Source of the DNA: an uncultured Holophagales bacterium
GTDB taxonomy: Bacteria > Acidobacteriota > Thermoanaerobaculia > Multivoradales > UBA5704
Reading direction: 5' to 3'
DNA length: 64,000 nucleotides
NCBI GenBank assembly: GCA_963842525.1
Contig: CAWJGT010000025.1
Coordinates: forward strand, 477,625-541,624
The notes under the pieces were generated by a model. It searched no databases. It saw only the letters and a program-made list of their open reading frames with translations, and had not been told where the DNA came from. Both the position numbers and the translations under genes were made by a program. Shown piece by piece: positions 34,652-36,775 of this stretch (position 1 is the stretch's first letter; each line of letters starts with the position of its first letter).

Positions 34652-34706
34652 GCCCAACCCCGCCGATCGAGCGGACGGCAAAGCCGCCGCTCATCGGCAG
34701 CAGCGT
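34652..34706 (+). other. Integron attC site split by a group II intron (remaining TGGCC at 36743-36747)
   Basis: GCCCAAC-CCC-GCCGAT-C-GAGCGG-A-CGGC-AAA-GCCG-CCGCTC-ATCGGC-AGCAGC-GT|TGGCC, with two extrahelical bases. Confidence 0.85.
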
Positions 34707-36742
34707 GTGCGCCAAGACAAGCTTGGCGCTTCTTGCAGGGTGTAAGTCCCTGCCGGGTAAGGTCTAACCAACCACCCGTACCGAGTGTTGCAGATCTGGC
34801 GGAGGAGAGTCGACGTCGACGAACCGAACAAGAGGTCTGAAGCGTACACAGGGAACCATGTAGGCCGTAAGGGAGACCGCACCTCCCCCAGGTCTGGTAC
34901 AGCCCCGAAAGCGCCGATTACAGATGCAGGCGGCGATCGTTTACGTTTGCGAGAAGCCCACGCGAAGGAATCGCTTTGGTGAGATTCTGGAAGCCTGCCG
35001 GGGTCATCAGGACATGGCATGCATGGAGAGGAGCGTCGAAGAACTTGGGAGACCCCATTGATTCCTGCACTCTTAGAGAGGCAATCTGCAAGGCGCGAGG
35101 CTGGCTAGGCACAGAAGGGGAAACCCGGACCCAGAGAGAATGCCTGGCGCCTAAACGGAGGATCGACGAGAGATGACAGGTAGGCGACCTGAACCGAAAA
35201 GGCAAGGGAGACTGAAGATCATTGGGGAGTCGGATCAGCCCATAGTACTCCGAGAACGGGAGAGCCGTTCACATGGGGAAGGAGCTGACGGGAACCCGTA
35301 GCCCGCAAAGGAAACATGACCCAGATGCGACAGGCTGGACAACTCATGCCAACCTCCCTGCGGGGAATAGCGAACAAGGCAAGCTCTGACAAGAACCACC
35401 GTTTCGGCAATCTCTTTGGTCTGCTGACCATGACGTTCCTTCTGTCCTGCTGGGAGCGAGTCAACAAGAAAGCTGCCAGCGGCGTGGATCGGGTTTCGGC
35501 CCGGGCTTACGCGAAGGATCTGGCGGGAAACGTAAGAGACCTTTGGGAGCGTGTGAAGCGGGGTAGTTACCGGGCGAAGCTGGTCCGGCGACGTCACATT
35601 CCGAAGGAAGGGAGTACAGCGACTCGGCCACTGGGGATCCCGGCGGTGGAGGACAAGCTGCTCCAGATCGCAGTCTCCCGCATTCTCAATGCCATCTACG
35701 AGCCGATCTTTCTGCCGTGCAGTTGGGCATACAGGCTCGGCCGTAATGCGCGGGAAGCAGTGCGGACGCTGAAACAGGAGCTTCAGTTTGGTTGCTACGG
35801 TTACGTTGTGGAGATTGACATCAAGGGGTTCTTCGACCGGATCGACCATGAGAAGCTCATGGAGATGCTCGAGCTGAGAATCAACGATCGGCCGTTCCTG
35901 CGGCTGATCTGGAAATGGCTCAAGGCGGGAGTATTGGAAGAGGGTGGGAAGGTGATCCACCCGGACACGGGCTGTCCGCAAGGTAGTGGGATATCACCCG
36001 TGCTTGCCAATATCTACCTTCACTACGTTCTGGACCTTTGGTTCACGGAGGTGGTGAAGCCCCGGTGTAAAGCGCGGGCCTTCATGTGCCGGTTTGCGGA
36101 CGATGTGGTGTTCGCCTTCCAGTGGCATGAGGAGGCCGAGCGGTTCTTCCGGGTCCTGCCGAAACGGCTGGCGAAGTACGGGTTGGAGCTTTCGGCGGAG
36201 AAGAGCCGGATGGTGCGGTTCAGCCGGTTCCAACTGGGCAAGAGCTCGGAGAGGTTCGACTTCCTCGGGTTCGAGTTCCGCTGGGTGAAGGACCACAAGG
36301 GAGTGGCCCGGGTGACGTGCCGGACATCGCGCAAGCGGCTTCGGGCGTCGTTGACCAGGGTGACCGAGTGGATCAAGGCCGAGCGGCACCTGCCGGTACG
36401 CCAGTTGGTGGGGGCGTTGAACGCGAGGCTTCGTGGGCACTATAATTACTACGGGGTGATCGGCAACTACGCAAGCCTATGCTCATACTTCAATCAAGCG
36501 AAACGGCTGCTGATGAAGTGGTTGGGGAGGCGGAGTCAAAAGAGCCGGATGAGCTGGGTGAAGTTCAGCGCCCTGCTGAAGCGATTTCCACTGGAGGAAC
36601 CCTGGATCGCGGAGAGTCGGCATCGGCAGATGGTTCTTGTCTGAGTTGCTGAGTGCGGAAGCGAGGGTAACCGAAGAGCCCGGTGCGGAAAAACCGCACG
36701 CCGGGATCTGTGCGGGGGGCGCTTCGGCGTCCCTACCGCGAC
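34707..36742 (+). mobile_element. Group II intron
   Basis: 5' GTGCG; domain V GAGCCCGGTGCGGAAAAACCGCACGCCGGGATC; domain VI ending CCCTACCGCGAC. Confidence 0.92.
35316..36644 (+). CDS. ltrA: Group II intron reverse transcriptase/maturase (no endonuclease domain)
   Basis: RPLGIPAVEDK, DIKGFFD, GCPQGSGISPVLANIYLH, RFADD, LRGHYNYY. Confidence 0.95.
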   Translation: MTQMRQAGQLMPTSLRGIANKASSDKNHRFGNLFGLLTMTFLLSCWERVNKKAASGVDRVSARAYAKDLAGNVRDLWERVKRGSYRAKLVRRRHIPKEGSTATRPLGIPAVEDKLLQIAVSRILNAIYEPIFLPCSWAYRLGRNAREAVRTLKQELQFGCYGYVVEIDIKGFFDRIDHEKLMEMLELRINDRPFLRLIWKWLKAGVLEEGGKVIHPDTGCPQGSGISPVLANIYLHYVLDLWFTEVVKPRCKARAFMCRFADDVVFAFQWHEEAERFFRVLPKRLAKYGLELSAEKSRMVRFSRFQLGKSSERFDFLGFEFRWVKDHKGVARVTCRTSRKRLRASLTRVTEWIKAERHLPVRQLVGALNARLRGHYNYYGVIGNYASLCSYFNQAKRLLMKWLGRRSQKSRMSWVKFSALLKRFPLEEPWIAESRHRQMVLV

Positions 36743-36775
36743 TGGCCGATCTAAAGTTCTGTTCGTCTTTTAGAG

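Follow-up and report, generated by a model that had tools for sequence, protein, structure and literature searches.

How does a full-length group II intron come to lie exactly within the core of an attC, the recombination site of integrons, and to share its orientation with the neighbouring cassette genes? The question is raised by a stretch of 64,000 nt, referred to here as the window, from an uncultured Holophagales bacterium of the phylum Acidobacteriota (assembly GCA_963842525.1, contig CAWJGT010000025.1, positions 477,625 to 541,624). The genome comprises 9.95 Mb in 34 contigs and is 96% complete. The answer favoured here, with a probability of roughly 0.8, is that the element is a full-length and recently active class-E-like intron of an acidobacterial lineage, devoid of an endonuclease domain, which retrohomes into attC sites.

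The intron and the attC that it interrupts

The intron and its functional parts occupy the following positions of the window.

34707–36742, plus strand: full-length group II intron of 2036 nt, beginning with GTGCG and ending with AC (36741–36742)
34743–35014, plus strand: domain I core, Rfam family RF02005 (group-II-D1D4-6), 100.8 bits, E 2.5e-27
34943–34946, plus strand: exon-binding site 1 (EBS1), ACG (34943–34945) plus U34946, in the hairpin loop UUACGUUU, which was placed by the Rfam alignment
35006, plus strand: EBS3, an A near the end of domain I
35316–36644, plus strand: open reading frame (ORF) of 442 aa for the intron-encoded reverse transcriptase/maturase, RVT_1 and GIIM
36674–36742, plus strand: domains V and VI, Rfam family RF00029, 40.4 bits, barely reaching the gathering score of 40
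36676–36708, plus strand: domain V, with an AGC triad at 36677–36679 as read from the sequence

The 5' junction reads GCAGCGT/GTGCGCC between 34706 and 34707, and the 3' junction reads CCGCGAC/TGGCC between 36742 and 36743 (a slash marks the junction). The hallmarks of a mobile group II intron are all present, namely GUGYG and AY ends, domain V, a bulged adenosine, and a reverse transcriptase with a maturase domain encoded in domain IV. The bulged base of domain VI is A36735 in ACCGCGAC, which matches the consensus AXXXXRAY. In the 442-aa intron-encoded protein (IEP), RVT_1 (1.9e-34) and GIIM (1.1e-6) were the only domains matched, and the domain search found no endonuclease (D/En) domain. The protein scores 332 bits against the NCBIfam group II reverse transcriptase/maturase model TIGR04416 (cut-off 300), and its active-site motif, FADD at residue 260, recurs in several relatives. 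The intron is complete and probably still mobile.

The site around the intron consists of the following parts.

34652–34706, plus strand: 5' part of the interrupted attC, recognised by its sequence, by a covariance model, by a structural scan and by unoccupied counterparts in the genome
34652–34658, plus strand: R'', GCCCAAC
34662–34679, plus strand: 5' arm, with stem 34662–34667, bulge C34668, stem 34669–34674, bulge A34675 and stem 34676–34679
34680–34682, plus strand: loop, AAA
34683–34698, plus strand: 3' arm
34699–34704, plus strand: spacer of 6 nt
34705–34706, plus strand: GT of R'; C34704–T34706 form intron-binding site 1 (IBS1)
36743–36747, plus strand: rest of R', TGGCC; T36743 is IBS3

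Excision of 34707–36742 in silico joins 55 and 5 nt into a 60-nt attC, whose 16-bp stem is bulged on one side only, at C34668 and, six bases away, at A34675. R'' (GCCCAAC) and R' (GTTGGCC) are complementary in 6 of 7 pairs; R' deviates at its sixth base from the consensus (RYYYAAC for R'' and GTTRRRY for R'). On the 3' arm of the minus strand, the bulges appear as T-N6-G, with the G and T opposite C34668 and A34675; this is the commonest extrahelical pattern in folded attC bottom strands, according to the accessible part of Larouche & Roy 2011. A structural attC scan under strict rules accepts the computed joined site and places the junction behind the second base of R'; with DNA parameters, the site folds at -20.6 kcal/mol (z -4.3) for the top strand and -25.1 kcal/mol (z -5.7) for the bottom strand. 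Moreover, an attC covariance model (R1), built on 25 other, uninterrupted sites, of which 19 belong to this genome and 6 adjoin true integrases in relatives, matches the window at 34652–34712 with 68.2 bits (E 3.6e-15). The same attC element is also present unoccupied elsewhere in the genome, with CGTT uninterrupted. A sequence-only reading of the locus had placed the intron in the GT/T core of an attC, a position on which the junction sequences, the Rfam matches and the covariance model agree. It had further proposed that removal of the intron restores a 60-nt attC with an extrahelical C and A, as is borne out by the sequence, the structural scan and the T-N6-G pattern.

The intron lies on the attC top strand and is co-oriented with the cassette ORFs, as that reading had also maintained. 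Four independent grounds lead to this strand. The first is the side of the bulges. The second is the strand of the ORFs, since in 19 of 24 intervals of the relatives and 13 of 18 of this genome the longest ORF between neighbouring attCs runs on the top (R''-to-R') strand. The third is the strand of the model matches, which is that of the intron in 49/49 cases in the intron-oriented loci (L002, L003 and the relatives' loci) and in 20/20 in the metagenome loci. The fourth is the geometry relative to the integrase gene intI: attCs of the same type lie downstream of it and co-oriented with it in three of the four relatives examined, none being found in the fourth (L088).

Simpler means of finding attCs were of limited use. 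The bare motif GTTRRRY occurs 53 times in the window against 52.3 expected and, not being enriched, is uninformative. A rule-based scanner missed sites later caught by the covariance model, found 0 intact sites in the window, and accepted 6 of 15 joined sites under strict rules and 8 of 15 under relaxed ones. The junction fell after base 2 of R' in all eight accepted sites, and the scanner was kept as a second line of evidence only. The occupied attC of the window is solitary, which refines the earlier description: the window's other three model matches all fall on the minus strand, none of them closer than 18 kb.

A class-E-like intron outside class C

Family RF02005 is shared with the class E reference intron S.me.I4, a disrupted intron on plasmid pRmeGR4b of Sinorhizobium meliloti GR4 (145 bits there). 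The class D introns RmInt1 and RmInt2 match RF01999 instead, and the class C intron matches RF02001 and RF01998. The class labels for the GR4 introns follow Toro et al. 2018, according to whose accessible part pSymB carries a class C intron besides three copies of the class D intron RmInt2; the loci found in these records fit that description and were putatively assigned to the names by copy number and state. In an IQ-TREE phylogeny of 27 IEPs, restricted to proteins of at least 250 aa, all 23 RF02005-associated proteins form one clade (97/97) that includes the window IEP and S.me.I4, with the class C and class D references outside. Within this clade, the attC-targeting acidobacterial group is a 7-row clade of its own (100/100), in which two relatives with altered target pairing, L022 and L023, are nested. 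A sequence search of the PDB gave 133 bits for GsI-IIC and 132 bits for LtrA and does not discriminate between classes, as is likewise the case for a Peribacillus relative.

Because the references are few and the RNA of class F has been described as similar to that of class E, the label adopted here is class-E-like, not class C. The family match and the tree support an intron of class-E-like kind (IIB-type, RF02005) outside class C, class E and its neighbouring classes not being separable with these references. The sequence-only reading had favoured class D/E over IIC: the exclusion of IIC and the likeness to class E stand, while class D does not, given the family RF01999 of the class D introns and their position outside the clade. 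Its further suggestion of a separate attC-targeting lineage is largely supported, since the IEP lies outside class C and most of the close homologues, as described below, occupy attCs.

Occupied sites in this genome and in relatives

Three copies of the intron, 100% identical, are present in the genome, on the window contig (C25) and on contigs C11 and C3. They occupy three different attCs at the same GT/T, and their outer flanks are unrelated. The genome holds at least 52 matches to the attC model at E <= 1e-3, a count that is a lower bound because 150 of about 20,800 first-look candidates were scored. No attC model match was found near the other five group II intron loci of the genome. One of those loci holds an intron of class C type (RF02001, 129 bits), and the remaining four are copies of a different family with weak RF02005 matches (45–47 bits); the five lie at C9:245779-245954, C34:230392-230651, C3:1640641-1640900, C9:824839-825098 and C23:405654-405912 of this genome (G000).

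Relatives were collected from genomes (37 loci) and from metagenomes (80 loci). The close relatives among the former (82–90% IEP identity) come from metagenome-assembled genomes (MAGs) with the labels Thermoanaerobaculia, Thermoanaerobaculaceae, Pyrinomonadaceae or Acidobacteriota. The 5' junction is present in 15 relatives of the genome collection, and an attC model match ends there in 11 of them (L013–L018, L021, L024, L031, L041 and L047). Among the 11 close metagenome relatives (IEP identity of at least 72%) with at least 70 nt of upstream flank, 8 have an attC at the junction (L101, L102, L103, L105, L107, L108, L161 and L179), L108 being the same locus as L021. The relatives alone, acidobacterial MAGs and soil contigs, thus give 19/26; with the 3/3 own copies, the total is 22/29, or 21/28 without the duplicate. 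The 3' exon begins with T in 18 of 20 junctions from the genome collection and the own copies and in all 14 metagenome junctions. Among the attCs that carry the intron, the fold is kept but sequence and loop length vary widely; the attC is therefore not co-transported with the intron.

The habit is confined to the acidobacterial subclade. None of the distant RF02005 introns (33–58% IEP identity) lies at an attC, and relatives of the family away from attCs include L025, L028, L029, L033, L035, L045, L050 and L053. At L034:560-620, from a Nitrospira (44% IEP identity), a stretch resembling the 3' half of an attC, ...CCGCTTATCGGCAGCGTTAGGC, lies a few bases before a possible intron start; the attC covariance model gave no match at this locus. 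Another relative, L022, has a match to the Acido-Lenti-1 small RNA (RF01687, 48.2 bits) nearby, at 1665–1710 on the minus strand.

The intron-bearing sites are integron attCs, beyond mere palindromes, as is indicated by the arrays adjoining IntI in relatives and from an intI remnant with attCs in this genome. The cut-off of the IntI model TIGR02249 is passed in 13 of the 41 genomes searched, which comprise 40 relatives and this one; this genome is not among the 13. The remnant lies in locus L072 (G000:C9:1069000-1080000), at about 1693–4894, where an intI fragment covering model positions 93–174 is parted from a piece covering 168–215 by an IS21-like element (IstB at 3283–4518). It is followed by five co-oriented attCs (C9:1074623-1077562, about 5624–8562 of the locus), and the locus looks like a disabled chromosomal integron. 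Cassette-sized co-oriented ORFs occupy the intervals between sites.

Target pairing

The ACG of EBS1 is the complement of CGT, with which the 5' exon ends, and A35006 is that of the first T of the 3' exon. Of 30 rows of collected introns, 27 show pairing between EBS1 and exon positions -1 to -3; in all 21 rows where the 3' exon is known, its first base pairs with EBS3. In L022, L023 and L160, EBS1 is AACC and EBS3 is T; their 5' exons end in GGTT, and the 3' exons of L022 and L023 start with A, which pairs with the EBS3 T, the 3' exon of L160 being outside the data. Similarly, L143 has EBS1 AACG and EBS3 T, with an exon ending in CGTT. Exon position -4 also covaries with EBS1, ACGC occurring with GCGT and ACGG with CCGT. 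The assignments of EBS1 and EBS3 are therefore supported by natural retargeting. L022, L023 and L160 appear as a sub-lineage of the same intron at non-attC sites of the form ...GGTT/, and the site of L160 (L160:1-134) directly follows a hairpin, GCGTCTATCCG...CGGATAGACGC, that resembles the IS91-type end found in the window.

Core recognition thus amounts to 3–4 bp plus 1 bp, much as it does for IIC introns. The genome contains 52,674 CGTT tetranucleotides, and all three own copies lie in attCs, of which there are about 50, so that further recognition must be needed. Four base pairs are too few for specificity, which argues that the ribonucleoprotein (RNP) must also read the attC itself.

A proposed route into the attC

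On the reading favoured here, the intron would enter the top (non-recombinogenic) strand of the attC between the GT and T of R', one nucleotide 3' of the integrase crossover G/TT and in sense to the cassette genes. The short EBS1, ACG and sometimes 4 nt, would pair with CGT, and the A of EBS3 with the next T. The RNP would most likely read the folded, single-stranded hairpin of the top strand at the replication fork, as IIC introns do with terminator and attC hairpins. An IEP that lacks an endonuclease domain fits such a reading of a single-stranded hairpin, and priming from the replication fork has been shown for endonuclease-less introns according to the available text of a 2015 review. The GC skew is near zero throughout, and in 31 of 52 cases the G-richer strand is the one that carries the attC top strand, so leading and lagging strands are not assignable from it.

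Two consequences may be expected. The insertion breaks the R box, which should leave the integrase unable to use that attC at the level of DNA. Additionally, because the intron is co-oriented, readthrough transcripts from the cassette side could splice it out.

Several observations weigh against this account. The reverse transcriptase has FADD instead of YADD, and no IntI above the TIGR02249 cut-off was found intact in this genome. An attC at the junction is absent in L019, L022, L023 and L027 of the genome collection and in L109, L143 and L160 of the metagenome collection. The invariant bases of the attC 3' arm, CCG.T.A (C37, G38, T40 and A42 in alignment A5), about 13–20 nt before the junction, can be read as sequence rather than structure. 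Pairing in the model alignment is 93.7%, compared with 71.6% in shuffles, values that are partly circular and only descriptive because the 25 model sites were first picked by a pairing-based scanner. In the IEP tree, the relation to S.me.I4 within the RF02005 clade is a polytomy, with S.me.I4 represented by a 318-aa fragment, and the references comprise one class C and one class E protein besides those of class D, IIC-attC, F, g1-g6, A, B, CL and ML being left out. Among sequencing runs, one of soil DNA contains 0.75 of the sampled words and may represent the source sample. Pieces of the intron or its relatives, mostly 90–99% alike, are present on contigs of three soil runs labelled as RNA; no empty site or spliced joint was bridged on the contigs, and as contigs cannot show transcription, nothing follows from them for expression or splicing.

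Alternative explanations

The main alternative, unlikely though to be taken seriously, is that the intron homes by sequence only, with EBS1 and EBS3 helped by contacts of the IEP, or of an unseen EBS2, to conserved attC bases in duplex DNA, the hairpin remaining unread. The invariant bases of the 3' arm would suit this, as they lie about as far upstream of the junction as the DNA contacts made by the IEPs of homing introns, and other RF02005 relatives home into ordinary sites without a hairpin. Against it, exon positions -4 to -12 vary among occupied sites, and no consistent EBS2 partner was found when the variable loops of domain I were compared with exon positions -8 to -13, a comparison made by eye and not systematically. 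The missing endonuclease domain points in the same direction, given the fork priming described for such introns in the 2015 review, as does L160, whose site directly follows a hairpin of a different kind, that of an IS91-type end.

That the intron was moved by integrase shuffling rather than retrohoming, as the leading part of a cassette inserted by IntI at G/TT, is improbable. Such an event would fit its position one nucleotide from the crossover and the attC, with G plus T at its end, that stands before it in every case, and arrays and IntI are present in the lineage. Yet the sequences on the 3' side of the three own copies part within about 8 nt, and the next attCs are 0.7–1.1 kb from the intron, behind differing ORFs. 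Exon position -4, which lies upstream of the crossover, covaries with EBS1, and the retargeted variants switch EBS1 and EBS3 together with their exons. Three identical copies exist, moreover, in a genome without an intact IntI. The unconserved 3' flanks and the pairing upstream of the crossover make an origin by integrase shuffling unlikely.

It is still less probable that the hairpins are some other repeated palindrome, similar to repetitive extragenic palindromes (REP) or terminators, and that the intron merely seeks hairpins. The lack of an IntI above the cut-off here, the solitary site of the window and the ordinary frequency of GTTRRRY would agree with this idea. However, the sites have R'' and R' boxes, bulges in the T-N6-G pattern and loops of variable length, the same type of site is arrayed right after bona fide intI genes in relatives, and in this genome such sites follow the intI broken by IS21, with cassette-sized co-oriented ORFs between them.

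Finally, an ordinary IIC-attC intron with a mis-assigned attC strand deserves hardly any credence: attCs are near-palindromic and IIC-attC introns, too, have a GT/T junction (TTGT/T), though on the opposite strand, but the intron matches RF02005 and not RF02001 or RF01998, class C is excluded by the tree, the triad is AGC and not the CGC given for IIC, and bulge side, ORF strand and intI geometry agree on one strand.

Retrohoming into attCs by a class-E-like intron therefore remains the preferred reading. A broader proposition built on it is held with less assurance, although the balance leans towards it: hairpin-guided attC targeting would have evolved a second time, in class-E-like introns of soil Acidobacteriota that mirror the IIC-attC introns. 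Such introns would read the top-strand fold, ride in cassette arrays in sense and in spliceable form, and lock neighbouring cassettes together by destroying the attC between them.

If this is correct, targeting with the help of DNA structure is no exclusive property of the IIC ribozyme, since a class-E-like lineage would reach one exact phosphodiester with an EBS1 of 3–4 bp. A sense-oriented intron in an array might be co-transcribed and spliced, instead of blocking transcription in the manner of IIC-attC introns, and its insertion could inactivate one attC and fuse two cassettes into one unit. The many attC variants, together with the retargeted EBS variants, would offer natural material on how an RNP reads DNA hairpins. 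The integrons of uncultured soil Acidobacteriota would, moreover, carry retroelement parasites of their own.

Other features of the window

Several further features of the window accompany the intron.

34435–34638, plus strand: cassette-like ORF of 67 aa, ending 13 nt before R''
15578–15637, minus strand: attC model match, 54.5 bits
16228–16299, minus strand: attC model match, 38.2 bits
58174–58235, minus strand: attC model match, 60.1 bits

Domain and profile searches found no family for the 67-aa ORF. A GTTAGGT lies at 34420–34426, 8 nt before its start, and together with the attC would bound a single cassette of 285 bp, as if inserted at a secondary chromosomal GTT site. The attCs at 15578–15637 and 16228–16299 are 0.6 kb apart, like a small integrase-less cluster. 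The attC at 58174–58235 follows an ORF of 381 aa (58386–59531) for which no known family was matched.

A 2.9-kb repeat is present in three copies that are 98–99% alike, one in the window (59573–62280, minus strand) and two elsewhere in the genome (G000:C3:356326-359213 and C9:1899673-1902559). It encodes a 284-aa XerC/D-like tyrosine recombinase (61140–61994) and an IS91-family transposase (59934–61130), and its downstream end consists of a hairpin followed by ACACGTTGGGCG. After each copy come co-oriented attCs within about 0.6–1.4 kb. The tyrosine recombinase was considered as an integron integrase and rejected, because its 238.9 bits on the integron-integrase model fall short of the cut-off of 265, it has no counterpart of model positions 178–235 and it lies beside the IS91-family transposase in the repeat.

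Comparison with known systems

Terminator and attC insertion is confined to class C, and other lineages home by longer pairing, in the accessible part of the 2015 review. As described in the literature, the IIC-attC introns form a monophyletic subset of class C; they insert at R'' (TTGT/T) of the bottom strand and run against the transcription of the cassettes. The sequence-only reading had stated their strand and direction correctly. The present intron resembles them (for example S.ma.I2 of Serratia marcescens) in lacking an endonuclease, in using the GT/T core of an attC R box, in its very short EBS1 plus EBS3 and in the hairpin just upstream. It differs from them in being RF02005/class-E-like instead of class C/IIC, and in entering the top strand at R' CGT/T, in sense to the cassettes, instead of the bottom strand at R''.

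The class E intron S.me.I4 shares the same Rfam family for domains I–IV, has an IEP with 40% identity over 316 residues and likewise lacks an endonuclease domain; unlike the intron described here, it is not at an attC.

Non-IIC or top-strand introns at attCs have partial precedent. As far as the accessible text of Sonbol & Siam 2021 (PMC7923331) goes, hypersaline samples contained a CL1 intron, UHB.I2, co-oriented with cassettes and immediately after an attC, and two 5'-truncated class E fragments, H.ha.F1 and H.ha.F2, in clusters of attC sites lacking an integrase (CALIN), with attC-like hairpins upstream. These are likewise non-IIC (IIB) introns in cassette arrays. Among them, UHB.I2 is of class CL1, a single case without conserved exons, and H.ha.F1 and H.ha.F2, being truncated at the 5' end, give no junction to compare. 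The same source cites a IIC intron in an attC's top strand in an Enterobacter cloacae integron (Rodriguez-Martinez et al. 2012), which, as described there, differs in its class and in being a single occurrence. In the literature searched, no full-length, multi-copy, class-E-like lineage with an exact recurrent R' GT/T junction and EBS covariation was found. Compared by description only, the lineage reported here is set apart from the hypersaline IIB introns by full-length members, multiple copies, an exact and repeated R' junction and covariation between EBS and IBS.

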